Shown: piece by piece, positions 8,504-27,671 of the stretch
How positions within the stretch are numbered: position 1 is the stretch's first letter
Layout: each line of letters opens with the position of its first letter
Virus record (IMG/VR): IMGVR_UViG_3300020043_004017
Location: 1-36,323 of that record
Source of the DNA: a virus
Lineage: Duplodnaviria > Caudoviricetes
Reading direction: 5' to 3' (one strand)
Length of the DNA: 36,323 nucleotides
Translations under genes and position numbers: made by a program
Notes under the pieces: model-generated
Told to the model about the DNA's origin: nothing
Databases searched by the model: none
The model's input: only the letters and a program-made list of their open reading frames with translations

Positions 8504-8947
8504 ATGAGCATCAAAGGCGAAAAAGGAATTATCTACATTTATACAGGTTCGGCCTATAAGCCAGTAGCTTGTTTAACTTCAAACAGTTTAAATACAACTG
8601 TTTCAATGATTGAAAGTCAAACAAAATGTTATCCGGGCGTTGTTAAGAAAACAGCAGGTACATTTAGTTATACAATCGATGCAGAAGGAGAATACATCGA
8701 CACTACGACAGTAGGAGGTGATACTGCCAAACAATCTCACGATGCGTTGTTTTTGCTACAACAAGCTAAAACAAAAGTAGATTGGAAACTTGACACTAAT
8801 ATTGACGATGCTACATCTGTAAAATATTTTGGAAGCGGTTATTTAACTGATTTGAGCGCAACATTTGGAAGTGGTGACGAAGTTACAACATTTAGCACAA
8901 CCATTGATGGAGATGGAGCAATTGTATTAACTGATCCTCACGCCTGA
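8504..8947 (+). CDS. Major tail tube protein (TP901-1-like)
   Basis: IKG...IYI, ACLTSNSL, YFGSGYLTDL, TFS.TI.GDG. Confidence 0.85.
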   Translation: MSIKGEKGIIYIYTGSAYKPVACLTSNSLNTTVSMIESQTKCYPGVVKKTAGTFSYTIDAEGEYIDTTTVGGDTAKQSHDALFLLQQAKTKVDWKLDTNIDDATSVKYFGSGYLTDLSATFGSGDEVTTFSTTIDGDGAIVLTDPHA

Positions 8948-13716: not shown

Positions 13717-14232
13717 ATGGAATTTACCAACGGAGAGGATAGAATTTTATACATAAAATTAAACGGTGCTTGGCTTCCAGTTGCTTGTTTGACTTCTAAT
13801 TCTATTGACGAAGGCGCAGAAATGTTGCCTACAACTACAAGGGATAACGATGGCTGGTCAACTTCAAGGCCTACTATGCAAAATTATTCTATTCCATTCG
13901 AGGGGCTTCAAATAAATTCAACAGTTGCAATGGGAAATTTTGACGTTGCAAGTTATGACCGTTTGAAATTATTAAAGCGTTCAAAAACGCTTTTAGATTG
14001 GAAAATACAAGGCACTATTTTTCCAATCGTTGACTACGGAAAAGGGTATATTACCAATATTTCGGAAGCTTCGGCAGTTAATGAATTTTTATCTTTTTCA
14101 GGAACATTAACAGGTTACGGAATGCCAAAAGTAACTACTTTAGGAGAAACTATTTTAAACAACGGAGACCCTGACGTAGTACTTACTACTTCGACAGACG
14201 CAAATTTAGTAATTAAAACAAAAGAATTATAA
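13717..14232 (+). CDS. Second tail-tube-fold protein (distal tail?)
   Basis: Shares PVACLTSNS and YG.GY.T patterns with 8504-8947. Confidence 0.7.
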   Translation: MEFTNGEDRILYIKLNGAWLPVACLTSNSIDEGAEMLPTTTRDNDGWSTSRPTMQNYSIPFEGLQINSTVAMGNFDVASYDRLKLLKRSKTLLDWKIQGTIFPIVDYGKGYITNISEASAVNEFLSFSGTLTGYGMPKVTTLGETILNNGDPDVVLTTSTDANLVIKTKEL

Positions 14233-22129: not shown

Positions 22130-22555
22130 ATGATCCGAAAACACTCTTTAGAATTAGCTGTTATTTTAGCGATGATTATTTTGCTATTTTTGGCTTATGG
22201 TTGCGGTGGAACTCGTCAAGTTGCAACAGAAAAGCACGAAGAAATAACAATTGAAAACAGCTATTCAGAAGGTTCAAAGATTGTATTAGGAAACACTTTT
22301 ACCTATACACCATTTGATGCGATTAAACCAATGAAAATTGAGGGCAAAGAGTATATAAATGCAATTGTTAAGAGTGATAAAAGTAAAACGGTTACTAAAT
22401 GGAATGATAGAAATATCACAAAAACAATCACAATTGAAAAAACTAAACAAACAACCCGAGAGGATAACACTTGGCTATACATCGGATTGTTTGCTGTTTT
22501 AGTTTTAGGTATTTTGGCTTGGTTTAAATTACCGAGTTTTAGAAAGGACATTTAA
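22130..22555 (+). CDS. Unimolecular spanin-like lipoprotein
   Basis: Lipobox LAYG-C plus C-terminal TM helix. Confidence 0.7.
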   Translation: MIRKHSLELAVILAMIILLFLAYGCGGTRQVATEKHEEITIENSYSEGSKIVLGNTFTYTPFDAIKPMKIEGKEYINAIVKSDKSKTVTKWNDRNITKTITIEKTKQTTREDNTWLYIGLFAVLVLGILAWFKLPSFRKDI

Positions 22556-22724
22556 TCTTTTTTTGTTTTGGTATTAAATTAGCGTATTCTTTTTTTATTT
22601 TTTCAGATATTGCATCTCTCACGAATTGCCCAACATCAACATTATAAGACTTCATTTTTTGAAGAGTTTTTAGCTGTATTTCGTTAATACGGATAACCTT
22701 TGTTTTTGTTAGTGTTTTAGCCAT
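22539..22724 (-). CDS. Ribbon-helix-helix-like DNA-binding protein
   Basis: TKVIRI strand, then helices (DVGQFVRDAISEKI). Confidence 0.6.
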   Translation of the reverse strand: MAKTLTKTKVIRINEIQLKTLQKMKSYNVDVGQFVRDAISEKIKKEYANLIPKQKKIKCPF

Positions 22725-22804
22725 TTTGTAATACATTTATAGCGGTTAGTAAGTAGTTATATTCCAGCTTCGAGCAACTTTCTGGCGAAAGCTACTCTGG
22801 CTGT

Positions 22805-23005
22805 TTATTTGCGTTTCTTTTTCTTTGGTATCAAATGAGTATTCTTTTTTCTTATTTTTTTAATAGTTAAATCAGTTTGATAAAACTCAATTTTTCTATC
22901 TTGTAATTCATCAAAACTACTTAACAATCTTTCAACATCTTTTTTTACATTTTCATTTTGTGATGATGTAAGATTCCATTCTTTTCTTTCGTCAACAGGT
23001 TGCAT
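22805..23005 (-). CDS. Cassette 1 hypothetical protein, basic C-terminus
   Basis: Fills unit 22756-23049; A-rich AATTATG start context. Confidence 0.65.
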   Translation of the reverse strand: MQPVDERKEWNLTSSQNENVKKDVERLLSSFDELQDRKIEFYQTDLTIKKIRKKNTHLIPKKKKRK

Positions 23006-23040
23006 AATTTTAAATTTAATTTGTTAGTAAAAAAAGCCGA

Positions 23041-23122
23041 GAATATAACAACCACTATACAGCAGTTGCCTAATATACTAAACCGCATAGGCAACCGCAG
23101 TATAGTTTTAACGTTATACCTA
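23041..23122 (+). repeat. attC-like site 1
   Basis: GAATATAAC; arms 23054-23072 / 23088-23106 (17/19 complementary); GTTATACC. Confidence 0.7.
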
Positions 23123-23151
23123 ATACTACGATTCATCCGTAGTAATAGAAA

Positions 23152-23301
23152 TTATTTCTTTTCCATAATTCCGTAAATATCATTGTAAGCGTAATTTTCG
23201 CTAAAATAATTCAATGCTTCTACTATGTCTTCTGCATCTACTGTTGTGGTATAATAACCATACTCTGTGTGTTCATAAAACACGATAAATTCCTTTTCCA
23301 T
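23152..23301 (-). CDS. 49-aa acidic protein (cassette 2, not in ORF track)
   Basis: MEKEFIVFYEHTEYGYYTTTVDAEDIVEALNYFSENYAYNDIYGIMEKK*. Confidence 0.65.
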   Translation of the reverse strand: MEKEFIVFYEHTEYGYYTTTVDAEDIVEALNYFSENYAYNDIYGIMEKK

Positions 23302-23303
23302 AA

Positions 23304-23501
23304 TTATTTTATTATTTGTTTTAGTTTTCTGTCTAATTCGTTAATTTGTCTTATTTTATCTTCCAATGAAGCCGTTTGCTCTAAATTATGTTTATAATCT
23401 ATTTCTCTTTGCTCTTTAGTCGTCATTGTAGAACGATAAATAATACATCCTAAAATAATTCCTCCAAAAAAAGTTGCTATTAATATTTCAATTGTTATCA
23501 T
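23304..23501 (-). CDS. Small N-terminal-TM coiled-coil protein (cassette 2)
   Basis: TM helix plus heptad tail. Confidence 0.65.
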   Translation of the reverse strand: MITIEILIATFFGGIILGCIIYRSTMTTKEQREIDYKHNLEQTASLEDKIRQINELDRKLKQIIK

Positions 23502-23538
23502 AATTTTATTTTATTGTTAATATATACTTTTGCCGTAC

Positions 23539-23620
23539 TAGGTATAACAGCGGCTACCACCCACCGCCAAAATCTCGCTTGTACTTAGGCGGCAGTGGTA
23601 GCCGCAGGACGTTGGGCAAA
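23539..23620 (+). repeat. attC-like site 2
   Basis: TAGGTATAAC; perfect 11-bp arms 23550-23560 / 23595-23605 plus inner CCGCC/GGCGG; GTTGGGC. Confidence 0.7.
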
Positions 23621-23650
23621 ATGCCGAAGCATTTGCCCAACCAGCGGCAC

Positions 23651-23710
23651 TTCGCCCAACTAGCGCTTTGAGAAATACAAAGCACTTCGCAAAGCGCCGC
23701 TGGTTATGTG
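23651..23710 (+). repeat. attC-like site 3
   Basis: GCCCAAC; arms 23663-23674 / 23686-23697 (11/12); GTTATGT. Confidence 0.65.
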
Positions 23711-23715
23711 AGATA

Positions 23716-23886
23716 CTACGATTCCATGTGATTGTAGCATAATTTCATCACCCAAGCATTTTCAAATTCATACATTCCGCACACTTCACACGCTTCAATT
23801 TCGGTATCATAATAATTTATTTTACCATCTTTATCTTTCATAAAGTCCATATTCCTTAAATCGATAATAACATATTGGTTTTTCAT
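23716..23886 (-). CDS. 56-aa protein with CxxC (cassette 4, not in ORF track)
   Basis: MKNQYVIIDLRNMDFMKDKDGKINYYDTEIEACEVCGMYEFENAWVMKLCYNHMES*. Confidence 0.65.
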   Translation of the reverse strand: MKNQYVIIDLRNMDFMKDKDGKINYYDTEIEACEVCGMYEFENAWVMKLCYNHMES

Positions 23887-23957
23887 ATTTTTTCATTTGT
23901 TAATAAAACAGGCAACTACTTACAACCTCCGATTATTTTGCAATAAAAGTTTTCGAG

Positions 23958-24116
23958 TTAACGAGGGGTCACTTTTTCATTACCTGTTTTTTCAGCAAAA
24001 GCAATCCCTTTTTCTACTGCTTTAGATAAAACTTCGTCGGTTTTTGATAATTTGGATTCTTGTGCATTTATACTTAATGAAAATGCTAAAACGATTAATA
24101 AAATTACTTTTTTCAT
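23958..24116 (-). CDS. Short secreted protein, possibly truncated
   Basis: Signal peptide MKKVILLIVLAFSLSINAQ from ATG 24116. Confidence 0.5.
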   Translation of the reverse strand: MKKVILLIVLAFSLSINAQESKLSKTDEVLSKAVEKGIAFAEKTGNEKVTPR

Positions 24117-24291
24117 AATATTCAGTTTTAAAAACCCACTACATCTGCTAACACAGGTTTGCAAAAATGGCAAGTTTAGGTTTAATTTAAAGTTGTTTTT
24201 GTGTCTGTAAGATTTGTTATTACTCGAAAGTTCAGTCCTTAATTTCCCTGAACATCGGTTAGCGTCCGCCGTTGGGCAAAATGCCGAAGCA

Positions 24292-24543
24292 TTATAAATA
24301 CGAATTCAAAATTTCTGTTTTTTCTTTTTGATCTTCATAACTTAAATGTCCAAAAGTTGTAAATGTCTGCTCAATTTCCGCAAGTTTTTTTAATTGCGAT
24401 TTCATTTTTTTAACCTTAGCTAAAAGCTCCTGATTCCATTCCTGCTGCTCTTCCAATTCAGTTTGCGGAGTGCATTCTATTTCATTGATGTTTGCAGGAT
24501 TGTCATCTCTAAATGTTCCTTCAATGTAGTCGTCTGGGTTCAT
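24292..24543 (-). CDS. Hypothetical protein
   Basis: 83 aa in tightly packed minus-strand operon. Confidence 0.65.
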   Translation of the reverse strand: MNPDDYIEGTFRDDNPANINEIECTPQTELEEQQEWNQELLAKVKKMKSQLKKLAEIEQTFTTFGHLSYEDQKEKTEILNSYL

Positions 24544-24548
24544 AATTT

Positions 24549-24752
24549 CTATTGATTAAGTGATACTTTTCTAACTGCTGGAATCATTAATTCCTGGTCA
24601 TTTATGTATTTATTTTCGATCATCTTCATCCATTCATAGAATCGCTCTACATTAGAATTTACTTCTGGTGGATTAATTCCATTTCGAGACAGCGTTACTG
24701 CTAAGTTGTGTTCAAAAATTAACTTGCTGGTAAAGTTTGATGTGTTTTTCAT
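24549..24752 (-). CDS. Hypothetical protein
   Basis: Translationally coupled (4-nt overlap). Confidence 0.6.
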   Translation of the reverse strand: MKNTSNFTSKLIFEHNLAVTLSRNGINPPEVNSNVERFYEWMKMIENKYINDQELMIPAVRKVSLNQ

Positions 24753-25165
24753 AATTTCTCAAATTTAATAATTACACTCATTCCGTTTTCTTTTGCTTTT
24801 TGTTGCAAGGCTTCGATTTCTTTAGAATAGTCTGGTTTGGGTTTAAGGCGATATTCTAAATTTTTATTAGGAACATCAAACCATTCTCCATCTATTGTTC
24901 TAAATTGCATTTCGCTTGATTTCCAAACCTTCTCAACCTCAACACCACACGCTTCTAAAAATATATCAGCGTTGAATGTTTCGTAAGTTTCTTTATAGTA
25001 TGGAATTGACACTTGAATATTAGAAACTAATGCGTCATAATTAAAATCAGTAACTAAATAAGGACATTCATTAAATGAAGTTAAACTTTTAATTTCAACA
25101 GGAATCCTATCCTTAATACTATCAAACTGTTCTTGTGTGCATTTCATTGCGATTGGTCTTTTCAT
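24749..25165 (-). CDS. Hypothetical protein
   Basis: 138 aa with coupled overlaps. Confidence 0.7.
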   Translation of the reverse strand: MKRPIAMKCTQEQFDSIKDRIPVEIKSLTSFNECPYLVTDFNYDALVSNIQVSIPYYKETYETFNADIFLEACGVEVEKVWKSSEMQFRTIDGEWFDVPNKNLEYRLKPKPDYSKEIEALQQKAKENGMSVIIKFEKL

Positions 25166-25449
25166 AATTTTTCAATATTAAATGTTAATTTCATTCCTTT
25201 TTCGGCTGCTTTTTCAACAGCAAACTTAATAGCATTTTCAATTTTGCCATCGTAGAAAAACGGCAACTCGATATTATTAGCCTTCAAGATTTCTTCCATT
25301 TTTTTTAAGGTTGGCGAAAACTCTTCTGACTGCCATCTACCAATTGCAGATATAGAGATATCGTTTAATACTTGTTTTTGTTCTTTTAATTCGATTCGTT
25401 TTTGCATTAATACCTTGCAAAAGTTCTGCTGTAAACTGTATTTGTTCAT
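25162..25449 (-). CDS. Cro/CI-like HTH regulator
   Basis: ISISAIGRWQ.....PTL...EIL XRE-like pattern; first gene of divergent operon. Confidence 0.65.
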   Translation of the reverse strand: MNKYSLQQNFCKVLMQKRIELKEQKQVLNDISISAIGRWQSEEFSPTLKKMEEILKANNIELPFFYDGKIENAIKFAVEKAAEKGMKLTFNIEKL

Positions 25450-25574
25450 AGTGTTTATGTTTTAATTGTTAAGCAAAGATACACATATTTTCACGCTATA
25501 TGTAGTTTTAACATAATTTTAACATTTTTATTTATTTGTTTGATTTATCTTTGCTTCATAAAAAATCATAAACT
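25450..25574. promoter_or_regulatory. Divergent promoter region
   Basis: TATCTTTG on minus (25474-25481) and plus (25546-25553); TTTTAACAT twice in between. Confidence 0.65.
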
Positions 25575-25748
25575 ATGACAACAACAACTATCCTGCTAAT
25601 GATAGCACTTGTAATAGCCTTAATTGGCTGCTACATATTTTCACAAATGTTTTTCGATATATTCGAAGAAAACCAGAGCCTGAAGCGATCTAATTTATCG
25701 CTAAGAAATGAATTGAGAAATAGAATAATTAAAGATAAGGAAGAATGA
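25575..25748 (+). CDS. 57-aa TM + coiled-coil protein (not in ORF track)
   Basis: MTTTTILLMIALVIALIGCYIF...; TGA overlaps MTase ATG. Confidence 0.6.
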   Translation: MTTTTILLMIALVIALIGCYIFSQMFFDIFEENQSLKRSNLSLRNELRNRIIKDKEE

Positions 25749-26581
25749 AAAAAGCACAAATTTTTAATAACCATTTTCAGAATTTCAAAACATACGCTAT
25801 CCCCAAAGCACAATTAATTATAGCCGATATTCCTTATAACTTAGGCAATAATGCTTATGCAAGTAATCCTGCTTGGTATAAAGATGGAGACAATGCTAAT
25901 GGAGAGAGTGAATTAGCTGGTAAAAGTTTCTTTGATACAGACGAAGATTTCAGACCTGCTGAATTTATGCACTTTTGCAGTACAATGTTAAAGGCTGAAA
26001 CAAAAACAAAAAAAGTTGAAGGAGAAGCAAGACAAAAAGGAGACGCTCCTTGTATGATTGTTTTTTGTGCTTTTGATCAACAAATGTATTTAATTGAATT
26101 GGCAAAAAGATACGGATTGAATAACTATATAAATTTAGTTTTTCGTAAAAATTTCAGCGCACAAGTTTTAAAAGCAAATATGAAAGTTGTCGGAAATTGT
26201 GAATATGCTCTTATTTTTTACCGTGACAAATTGCCGAAATTCAGAAACAAAGGAAAAATGATTTTCAATTGTATGGACTGGCCGAGAGATAACGAAAGCG
26301 AAAAAATACACCCAACACAAAAGCCGATACCTTTATTAAAAAGATTAATTGAAATATTTACCGATGAAGGCGATGTGGTAATTGACCCTTGCGCTGGTTC
26401 AGGATCTACTTTAATAGCTGGTCAGGAATTGAAACGAAAATGTTTCGGTTTTGAAATTAAAAAACCATTTCATAAGGCTGCCGAAAACTGGATAAATGAG
26501 GAATATCAAAAACTTTCAGATATTGAGGAGTTTGGATTTGCTAAAACATTAATAAACAAAACAGAATCAACACTATTTTAA
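25745..26581 (+). CDS. Orphan N6-A/N4-C DNA methyltransferase (beta class)
   Basis: Motif IV DIPY, HPTQKP, motif I DPCAGSGST. Confidence 0.9.
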   Translation: MKKAQIFNNHFQNFKTYAIPKAQLIIADIPYNLGNNAYASNPAWYKDGDNANGESELAGKSFFDTDEDFRPAEFMHFCSTMLKAETKTKKVEGEARQKGDAPCMIVFCAFDQQMYLIELAKRYGLNNYINLVFRKNFSAQVLKANMKVVGNCEYALIFYRDKLPKFRNKGKMIFNCMDWPRDNESEKIHPTQKPIPLLKRLIEIFTDEGDVVIDPCAGSGSTLIAGQELKRKCFGFEIKKPFHKAAENWINEEYQKLSDIEEFGFAKTLINKTESTLF

Positions 26582-26583
26582 CT

Positions 26584-26835
26584 ATGAGAAATAAAAAAAC
26601 ACGTATTCAAATGCACCTCTTTTTTTGTTTGATGAACCTTCTACTCGAATGCCTCGATGAACTAAAGGTAACAAACACAAGAATGATTGAACTTAAAAAT
26701 AATCTAACTGAATTTTGTGAGTTGCTGAATGAAGATTGCAAAAATACATACACAATCCAAAAAACAACGTATTTTCAAGGATTGACAAACCAAATAAACA
26801 CGATGATGCGCAAGTGTTTTAATCCTGAAATGTAA
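26584..26835 (+). CDS. Hypothetical protein
   Basis: 83 aa in operon. Confidence 0.65.
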   Translation: MRNKKTRIQMHLFFCLMNLLLECLDELKVTNTRMIELKNNLTEFCELLNEDCKNTYTIQKTTYFQGLTNQINTMMRKCFNPEM

Positions 26836-27671
26836 TGAAAAATAAATTATATGTAATGATGTTTTCTGGCGGTAGAACTTCTGCTATTCTTGCAAAACAC
26901 ATAAAATCAAATCCTGATAAATATCCAAATGTAATTTATGTTTTTTTGAATACAGGAAAGGAAGTTGAAAAAACTTTGCAATTTGTAGATAGATGCGATA
27001 AAGAATGGGATTTAGGAGTTATATGGCTTGAGGCAAAAGTAATCAATGAAAAAGGAAAAGGAACAACTTATAAAATGGTTGATTTTAAAACCGCTTCACG
27101 AAATGGAGAACCATTTGAAGCGATGCTTAAAAAATATCCTTTACCAAATAATATGGCTTCTAATTGCACAAGAGAATTAAAACAAAGACCTATTGACGCT
27201 TATTTAAGAGATAATTACAAAGATTATGAATTAATACGAGCAATAGGAATTAGAGCAGACGAGGCGCATCGTAAAAGCATACACGCAGCATCCGAAAATA
27301 TAATTTATCCTTTATGTGACGAAATACCATTTAATGAAAGAATGGTTAGGATGTTCTGGGAAAAGCAAAGTTTTGATTTAGGATTAAAAGATTATGAGGG
27401 AAACTGTGATTTATGTTTTAAGAAGTCATTAAAAAAAAGATTGACAATTATAAAAGAAAATCCTGAAAGTGCTAAATGGTGGCTTGATATGGAACTAAAA
27501 TATAGTTCCGAAGAAATACCTAGATTTGATTTAAGAACAAATAAAAGTATTGAAGAATTAATTGAAATGGCACAAAGACCATTTACTAAAGCAGAAGATT
27601 TACACGAACTTTCAAAACAGCAATGCGATTTATTTGAATATGAAACTGATTGCTTTTGTAAAGCAACTTAA
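26835..27671 (+). CDS. PAPS-reductase-family (PP-loop) protein
   Basis: FSGGRTS, NTGKE, CTRELK, GIRADE..R, GNCDLCF, terminal CFC. Confidence 0.85.
   Translation: MKNKLYVMMFSGGRTSAILAKHIKSNPDKYPNVIYVFLNTGKEVEKTLQFVDRCDKEWDLGVIWLEAKVINEKGKGTTYKMVDFKTASRNGEPFEAMLKKYPLPNNMASNCTRELKQRPIDAYLRDNYKDYELIRAIGIRADEAHRKSIHAASENIIYPLCDEIPFNERMVRMFWEKQSFDLGLKDYEGNCDLCFKKSLKKRLTIIKENPESAKWWLDMELKYSSEEIPRFDLRTNKSIEELIEMAQRPFTKAEDLHELSKQQCDLFEYETDCFCKAT

Follow-up and report, generated by a model that had tools for sequence, protein, structure and literature searches.

How can a phage that has no integrase gene build an ordered array of small, exchangeable genes? The question is raised by a viral contig of 36,323 nucleotides (Duplodnaviria; Caudoviricetes; IMG/VR record IMGVR_UViG_3300020043_004017, positions 1 to 36,323), the whole of which is referred to here as the window. 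Between the late genes and a leftward early operon, the window contains small genes arranged in units with paired ends. A preliminary description, made from the sequence alone, proposed that positions 22756..24293 are an integron-like cassette array with no integrase, which is shuffled by a host recombinase acting in trans. The analysis presented here leads to a related reading: the locus would be an integron-like array of cassettes carried by a phage, with an attI-like dock of its own and no recombinase gene, in which the cassettes move at G|TT, likely by means of a short tyrosine recombinase supplied in trans. From the sequence comparisons below, this reading is given a probability of about 0.85. 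The dock, the antisense polarity of the cargo and the non-IntI nature of the candidate enzyme go beyond the preliminary description.

From left to right, the array consists of the dock, cassette 1 (encoding 66 amino acids, aa), hairpin A, cassette 2 (49 + 65 aa), hairpin B, the gene-less cassette 3, hairpin C and cassette 4 (56 aa), which is deletion-fused to a remnant of cassette 5. This is followed by a long, chimeric site D and by a stub of the cassette-3 start, which is joined to the stop codon of an 83-aa backbone gene. Every open reading frame (ORF) in the array is on the minus strand, that is, antisense and facing the dock. The absence of an integrase is borne out for the whole contig: there is no tyrosine recombinase among the 57 ORFs of the window, and a tblastn search of the contig with the 267-aa phage enzyme introduced below gave a best E of 6.7. 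The contig has no terminal repeat, so that a small part of the genome may be missing.

The units are defined by their ends, and all six of the paired-end motifs reported for units 1 to 3 are where they had been placed. These ends are specific to each unit, since each start pairs best with its own end. The start of unit 1 pairs over 9 contiguous nt with its own end and over at most 6 nt with other ends; for unit 2 the values are 10 and at most 6, and the start of unit 3 pairs at 14 of 16 positions with the end at 23645-23660. As a control, 305 GTT[AG] starts from the rest of the window were examined; one of them has an inverted end of 9 nt no more than 500 nt away. Cassette 1 (22756..23049; this and the other array features are given on the + strand) has paired 9-nt ends, a 66-aa antisense ORF (22805-23005) and a shared left shell of approximately 47 nt. 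Cassette 2 (23113..23548) has paired 10-nt ends and two antisense ORFs, 23152-23301 (49 aa) and 23304-23501 (65 aa). Genes had been described inside all of the units, which holds for units 1 and 2; cassette 3 (23611..23705) comprises a gene-less 50 bp and hairpin C (23661-23702). It has two alternative R'' ends, the second of which (23632-23641) pairs perfectly over 10 nt. Likewise, the boundaries of the array stand in part. Units 1-3 are bounded by G|TT and each start pairs with its own R'', as in integrons, whereas units 4 and 5, which lie within the same range, are deletion-fused and unpaired.

Between the cassettes lie the attC-like hairpins. Hairpin A with the next G|TT spans 23050..23115 and folds to -19.8 kcal/mol on the bottom strand versus -16.2 on the top strand; for hairpin B with the next G|TT (23549..23613) the values are -26.6 and -22.8 kcal/mol, and a 4-nt bulge adjoins the R box. 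The two strands are about equal at site C. When the sites were circularised in silico, the bottom strands folded far beyond chance, with z scores of -7.6 (A), -6.9 (B) and -3.7 (C) relative to 200 dinucleotide shuffles. The only sites that a hairpin detector reported in the 36 kb are these three, all on the + strand; in five 2-mer-shuffled windows it reported 0, 1, 0, 2 and 0 sites. The hairpins had been called GC-rich, which suits B (59%) and C (48-54%) but not A, at 41%, with a genome value of approximately 32%. They were also said to be unrelated to one another. This is so within the window, but their families are shared with other phages and with host chromosomes, and hairpin A itself follows other cargo in L073, L135 and L155. 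Finally, the hairpins had been described as bounded by AAC...GTT; the leftmost GTT does not fold into a hairpin (z 0.2-0.3). This is the dock.

The attI-like dock (22727..22759, + strand) comprises the palindrome TGTAATACA, TA at -9/-8, five bases and G|TTA, and it has no hairpin. It overlaps the start of a 65-aa gene (22539..22736, - strand), which is the last gene of the leftward early operon, belongs to phrog_25647 and is always linked to a dock. That is, the dock is present in 55 of the 55 viral loci carrying the gene, with T-9, A-8, the five-base spacer and GTTA conserved. In 48 of these loci the GTT is exactly 29 nt past a TGTAAYRC motif at the start of the gene. Forty-four distinct first-cassette starts follow these 48 docks (some of the loci are near-duplicates, and 41 of the docks are distinct), and the first cassette pairs over at least 8 nt with a downstream end in 41 of the 48, versus 82 of 1988 swapped controls. 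The other seven loci (L136, L141, L144, L164 and L169-L171) have the same dock 450-630 nt from the gene, each with a paired first cassette; the first codons of the 65-aa gene are retained at the dock, and the intervening 450-630 nt of other DNA separate it from an intact copy. The 65-aa protein is likely a ribbon-helix-helix (RHH) DNA-binding protein: an AlphaFold2 model (mean predicted local distance difference test, pLDDT, 80) has two helices, Arc, CopG and further RHH proteins lead the Foldseek rows (all with E>=1) and the match to the RelB hidden Markov model has an E of 0.006. As in integrons, the array thus appears to have a fixed, hairpin-less entry site that takes new cassettes first.

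The same site anatomy is found across related phages. Here, 235 non-redundant phage hairpins were compared, and the bottom strand is the more stable in 220 of them and the top strand in nine, with a mean difference of -3.5 kcal/mol. For attC sites, a bottom-strand bias of -2.12 with the same polarity was reported by Nivina et al. (PMC5027507). Two positions are fixed in the phage hairpins, T at +7 (98%) and C at -1 (99%); these hairpins were found by a detector that selects arms pairing near the ends. The first loop is a one-sided bulge of 3-4 nt on the R' arm in 193 of the 235, and later asymmetric loops are on the R' arm in 100 instances and on the R'' arm in 42. The attC definition of PMC2727003 has a two-sided unpaired spacer and extrahelical bases on the R''-L'' arm, and the phage hairpins do not have this arrangement. 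Unlike in integrons, the pairing of cassette ends reaches approximately 15 nt, with a fixed mismatch at position 11 and continued pairing at positions 12-15 (87, 82, 77 and 57%), where the selection of pairs had used positions 1-9 only. The cargo is antisense in 244 of 251 ORF-bearing phage cassettes, which is not the orientation of integron cargo.

Movement of the units is seen most clearly in the cultured, 6H-like phages of the genus Unahavirus, which have a homologue of the 65-aa gene (72% identity) and the dock. FPSV-D35 equals FPSV-D15 plus one 390-bp unit at the dock, made up of a 271-bp cassette and a 119-bp hairpin, with flanks that are 100% identical. FPSV-F7 and 2A differ from D15 in whole cassettes that are lacking or added at G|TT, with 99.9-100% identity elsewhere; FPSV-D17 is the same as D15. 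Phage 6H has a copy of a distal cassette in first place at the dock (the comparison of 6H with 23T was left out, as it is confused by N letters and small gaps), and a prophage (L145) has shared cassettes in a different order. Throughout the Unahavirus comparison, a cassette that is shared is followed by the same hairpin, as it would be in integrons. The preliminary description had named gene-content breakpoints unrelated to the GTT sites as evidence against it; in the relatives compared, the breakpoints fall at G|TT. As judged from these genomes, the changes at G|TT comprise precise insertion of cassettes at the dock and their loss, duplication and reordering, and the array system has been active recently. 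The same comparisons show the unit of movement to be the cassette with its downstream hairpin, with new cassettes placed first at the dock and the cargo facing it.

The cassettes of the window are mobile by the same measure. Cassette 1 recurs in phage L004 with other neighbours (match 22756-23050, 93.6%), and L090 has cassette 3 and hairpin C (95%) between new neighbours to the left and right. Variants of cassette 3 are present in L136 and L164, in the latter first at the dock. A 16-mer scan gave 39 loci, of which L090 is the cassette, L094 a related hairpin arm and the rest chance. In addition, public contigs were used, which represent relatives at 85% likeness and not this phage's own reads. 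One of these (run X2, record 12) has the dock, 802 other bases and then the whole of cassette 2 (23110-23550), so that cassette 1 is replaced between breaks at 22760 and 23110. In another joint, site D is placed before cassette 1. Contigs in three runs span cassette 3 and break at 23706, and loose contig ends pile up at 22756 in three of four runs.

Which enzyme would act on these sites? As the nearest annotated DNA matches of the window are Flavobacterium and Polaribacter phages, the host group appears to be Flavobacterium-type. In phage L004, which shares cassette 1, the place of the 65-aa gene is occupied by a divergent 267-aa tyrosine recombinase. This enzyme was found in 78 viral loci, 63 of which passed a position filter and 45 of which had enough upstream DNA; in 43 of the 45, a dock and a paired cassette lie within 260 nt of the recombinase start, mostly 51-53 nt from the start codon. 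A pattern derived from site D identified 34 loci in species-representative genomes, nearly all Bacteroidota, and the Flavobacterium profundi locus (L187) contains a co-oriented 345-aa recombinase, a dock and sense cargo. Of 35 host loci, 26 had at least 600 nt downstream, and 17 of the 26 show a paired first cassette past the recombinase stop, mostly at approximately 100 nt; 14 of these 17 first cassettes are sense and three antisense. Matches to the 345-aa enzyme at E<=1e-45 were found in 51 of 81 Flavobacterium genomes; in this search, XerC/D-like proteins scored 1e-33 or weaker in genome G001, and three low hits were long proteins of a different type. All three dock types have TA at -9/-8 and a spacer of 5 nt ahead of GTT, as does the Shewanella attI quoted in PMC9892861.

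Neither enzyme resembles IntI in its distinguishing feature. Relative to VchIntIA (2A3V), residues 176-212 of the phage enzyme stand where IntI has 178-262, and residues 244-268 of the host enzyme stand where VchIntIA has 177-243; the IntI insertion is absent from both, and both align unbroken to XerA. The adjacent recombinases score 138-204 with the IntI model TIGR02249, below its cut-off of 265. Among 51 records (the 48 dock loci and three cultured phages), a full-length recombinase is present in two, a fragment in one and weak hits in four; most of these records are partial, and one of the 10 near-complete viral records has the recombinase whole. None of the cultured Flavobacterium phages matched the recombinase at 1e-30. 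Since arrays change in phages that lack the enzyme, a recombinase supplied in trans is indicated. The preliminary description assigned it to the host, and its absence from the contig and the close relatives in 51 of 81 Flavobacterium genomes agree with this, but a co-infecting phage could be the source instead. On balance, we favour the 345-aa host recombinase found beside chromosomal docks; the 267-aa version carried by co-infecting phages is a tentative second candidate, and some other source is improbable.

Several observations concern further loci. In two Flavobacterium loci (L299 and L313), an antisense first cassette, like those of phages, is at the host dock, and that of L299 is followed by the hairpin family of the site D 3' arm, which hints at an exchange of cassettes between phage and host. 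At L193:3930-8076, an array beside a divergent recombinase holds two sense cassettes and one antisense cassette of the phage type. In plasmids FJ012881.1 (L331:2986-5100) and NZ_CP104735.1 (L332), a shortened relative of the recombinase, TnpF (49% identity), is just before tet(X3). The latter has an upstream GTT with a cassette-type start and, downstream, AAC with the 5' arm of a long family hairpin, while its ends are unpaired. From this arrangement, tet(X3) may be a former cassette of this system; no description of it as such was found in a literature search that had most subscription papers outside its scope.

Taken together, these features suggest the following route. The substrate cut by a short, trans-acting tyrosine recombinase would be the bottom strand of each hairpin in its folded form. 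Recombination between two hairpins would excise the cassette as a circle, the cassette's own ends would re-form the paired R box on circularisation and the cassette would re-enter by recombination between hairpin and dock. The one-sided bulge may place the inner TAGC of the hairpin roughly as far from GTT as it is in the double-stranded dock. Transcription of the cassette genes would start at a phage early promoter at the far end and not at a Pc beside the dock. A candidate Bacteroidota sigma-A -7 box, TAnnTTTG (25474..25481, - strand), was identified in a motif scan with the consensus of PMC9723704; it would head the leftward operon, which would then read through the array towards the dock.

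Not everything fits this reading, and the following points weigh against it. In distant phages, near-identical cargo has a different downstream hairpin in four of seven pairs, and the upstream hairpin is shared in none. The only family-type hairpin tested in print, P12002L_attC1, gave no recombination with IntI1 (PMC9892861). The candidate enzymes lack the IntI insertion, and Cury et al. (10.1101/030866) do not count insertion-less recombinases near attC sites as IntI. The L half of the phage dock (TAGC/TAGT) is unlike that of the host dock (TATA). In addition, many of the dock loci are partial contigs, some from the same samples, and units 4 and 5 and site D are broken, so that part of the array is decaying.

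Some of these observations would be expected if homologous or microhomology recombination between repeated hairpins and shared ends, such as phage single-strand annealing, moved the genes with no site-specific recombinase. The four pairs with the same cargo and different hairpins can be read in this way, as can site D, a chimera with its crossover in the middle of the hairpin, the scattered joints between shells and cargo (22781-22812 and 23003-23031) and a contig without a recombinase. Yet the dock shares only about GTTA with an incoming cassette and insertions land exactly there; neighbouring hairpins are often unrelated, and the distance between a recombinase gene and docks is fixed. Nor would such a route need hairpins that fold with a strand bias and have a fixed bulge. 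We regard it as improbable as the main process and likely as a second one. Indeed, hairpin bodies and cargo are apparently also exchanged, on longer time scales, by recombination in shared ends that is not site-specific.

The polarity, the core and the strand bias are as in attC, and P12002L is among the phage clusters of attC sites lacking integron-integrases (CALINs) of Qi et al., with one of its two tested sites recombining with IntI1. This would suit a classical CALIN, with ordinary attC cassettes from a bacterial integron that are moved, if at all, by true IntI. We consider this still less probable, as the phage has its own dock, the first loop is the one-sided bulge and not a two-sided spacer, and the adjacent recombinases are insertion-less and below the IntI cut-off; moreover, the P12002L site active with IntI1 maps to the left end of the array and not to an inter-cassette hairpin. 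As defined by IntegronFinder, a CALIN is a group of sites that fit the attC covariance model away from any intI; of these features, the lack of intI holds for this contig. Least credible is that the hairpins are RNA elements (terminators, processing or stabilising stems, or Flavo-1-like repeats) with incidentally paired ends. The more stable strand is also the mRNA strand, there is one terminator-like stem in site C and the unit-1 shell and cassette 3 hold extra RNA-like hairpins. However, 22400-25700 contains one terminator-like site versus 1.3 expected by chance, which speaks against the terminator-only behaviour that the preliminary description had named as a ground for refutation. The suggested kinship to Flavo-1 was not supported either: except for a chance MicF hit, the window has no Rfam match at E<=1, and neither Flavo-1 (RF01705) nor any other Rfam family matched at E<=0.1 in the related arrays L003, L327, L187 and L004. 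RNA elements would leave the end pairing across a gene and the G|TT breakpoints unexplained, and as the sole explanation they are contradicted by the whole-cassette differences among Unahavirus phages.

With the integron-like cassette array as the preferred reading, the origin of the cassettes can be considered. To our knowledge, the origin of gene cassettes is still an open question. In the 251 ORF-bearing phage cassettes, 33 end pairs (14 nt) recur, and 30 of the 33 enclose unrelated protein families. The ends and shell of cassette 1, for example, enclose nine fetched cassettes, the cargo proteins of which show two weak links only. The shell-to-cargo joints are scattered and so do not reflect a specific site. 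Copies of the 66-aa and 56-aa genes are present outside cassettes as well, and for the latter these make up 27 of 39 distinct copies. These patterns suggest that new cassettes form when the gene within an existing shell is replaced by another. The 56-aa gene was placed in a DNA tree of 39 rows (nine duplicates and one short row dropped; L056 below the cut-off), in which the 12 cassette-linked copies need six changes, and an approximately unbiased (AU) test on the same tree did not reject a single clade (p 0.16), which would need no multiple capture. As a more speculative scheme, which as a whole we hold to be doubtful, this would be an inverted phage integron of Bacteroidota, in which a borrowed, insertion-less recombinase is guided to the dock by a dedicated RHH protein and cassettes are born from phage genes dropped into gene-less shells like cassette 3. 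Births in ready-made shells would explain the unrelated genes in 30 of 33 multi-member shells.

The right-hand part of the array is no longer intact. Cassette 4 (23703..23929) has a 56-aa antisense ORF (23716-23886) and a cut right end that stops after CAACCTC; in intact cassettes with the same start (L123, L166, L188 and L235), CAACCTC is followed by the paired core. The cassette 5 remnant (23930..24152) has lost its left end, its ORF (23958-24119, 53 aa) is likely truncated, and its intact right end and next hairpin family are the same as in an intact cassette of L148. Units 4 and 5 lack paired ends because a deletion joins them. Site D (24153..24273) is a chimera of two hairpin families: its 5' arm is common to Muminvirus phages, L057 and F. 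profundi (L187), its 3' arm to L128, L144, L155 and the host locus L299, and the arms no longer pair (bottom-strand z -0.6). The distal stub (24271..24293) is a 23-bp copy of the cassette-3 start, with which it forms a 24-bp direct repeat, fused to the stop codon of the 83-aa gene (24292-24543). This fusion is spanned by public contigs in runs X3 and X6, with a different preceding hairpin arm in X3. The 83-aa gene was considered as a full cassette and rejected, as there is no matching right end.

Two cassettes have additional folds. The left shell of cassette 1 contains a small hairpin (22766-22804), which pairs fully, with G-U pairs, on the mRNA strand only and the loop of which comes in two versions among relatives; this hairpin may act as an RNA stem that stabilises the 3' end. 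Cassette 3 (23611-23705) has nested folds with a minus-strand, TTCG-loop hairpin, and its outer stem changes on both sides in L136 and L164. This gene-less unit may be a minimal selfish cassette or an attenuator.

The five cargo ORFs gave no match in a PHROG search and Pfam matches only at E 0.02-0.04. No relative of the 65-aa ORF of cassette 2 was found in viral contigs, and for the 56-aa protein of cassette 4 the Atlas gave unnamed viral clusters. Elsewhere, the window carries terminase, portal, capsid, tail, endolysin, methyltransferase, primase-like and helicase genes. Outside the array, a DNA methyltransferase and a gene resembling 3'-phosphoadenosine 5'-phosphosulfate (PAPS) reductase (25745-27671) are possibly a DNA modification module, and the genes at 8504-8947 and 13717-14232 both match one major tail protein family, phrog_1407. 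In Muminvirus mumin6-1 (L003:1578-4620), DNA methyltransferase genes lie, as read by eye, in cassettes with paired ends, and the left end of this array, next to another 65-aa gene, differs in sequence.

If the proposed reading is correct, integron-type capture on folded, single-stranded sites needs no IntI insertion, and phages keep their own dock and borrow the enzyme. The system is present in cultured phages with complete genomes and is therefore testable now, and the finding that unrelated genes reuse identical ends offers a specific way, open to testing, in which gene cassettes could originate. Arrays of this kind would be overlooked or misinterpreted in standard integron screens. There may also be consequences for phage fitness, since such cassettes carry the methyltransferase genes of Muminvirus: in PMC7077304, a specific methyltransferase was lacking from phages that plated with low efficiency. 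The main text of that paper contains neither the word "integron" nor the word "cassette".

Only partial traces of such a system, namely the phage CALINs and rAID-1, were encountered in the accessible literature; literature searches of the scope given above listed no phage dock, no antisense cassettes and no report that assigns cassette recombination to this enzyme. Seventeen phage CALINs, including that of Polaribacter phage P12002L, were reported by Qi et al. (2023; PMC9892861), and no Flavobacterium phage is named in the main text and one supplement. Their attC-like clusters, in phage genomes without an integrase, resemble the present array. The P12002L cluster (L338:1380-2290) is itself such an array; it is homologous to that of P12002S, which adjoins a homologue of the 65-aa gene. 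Of the two sites tested in P12002L, the one inactive with IntI1 (attC1) corresponds to the hairpin that follows a methyltransferase cassette, and the active one (attC2) has its end at the first GTT of the array. The two sites were called in opposite directions, whereas by their paired ends the four detected cassettes run one way. The dock, the antisense polarity and a dedicated enzyme are not described for this array in the accessible text.

The rAID-1 arrays of Bacteroidales (Ross et al., 10.1101/471110) are found in the same phylum and consist of a XerD-family recombinase beside a gene array, with repeated intergenic sequences "reminiscent of integrons". They are defined by a XerD-like recombinase that is >44% identical to BF9343_RS08045 and 5' of co-directional genes, and the host loci, with a co-oriented recombinase and sense cargo, resemble this layout. 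Unlike the phage array, they are chromosomal and contain co-oriented immunity genes, with no phage form in the accessible description; the comparison here is one of layout. The gene-less cassettes of Vibrionaceae superintegrons (10.1101/2023.11.21.568050) are comparable to cassette 3 in that an ORF-less unit moves and may regulate its neighbours, but cassette 3 has only 50 bp, is nearly all hairpin and has two alternative ends.

The closest comparison is with integrons, especially the sedentary chromosomal ones. Both have a hairpin-less entry site followed by cassettes, a G|TT crossover and a bottom-strand bias; in both, the start of a cassette pairs with its own end, the cassette moves with its downstream hairpin and new cassettes enter first. 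They differ in that the phage array has no integrase in cis and its candidate enzymes lack the IntI insertion, and in that the phage cargo is antisense and its sites have a one-sided bulge, no consistent extrahelical bases on the R'' arm and end pairing that extends to approximately 15 nt around the mismatch at position 11. By these predicted characters, the phage array works like an integron and lies outside the IntI family.

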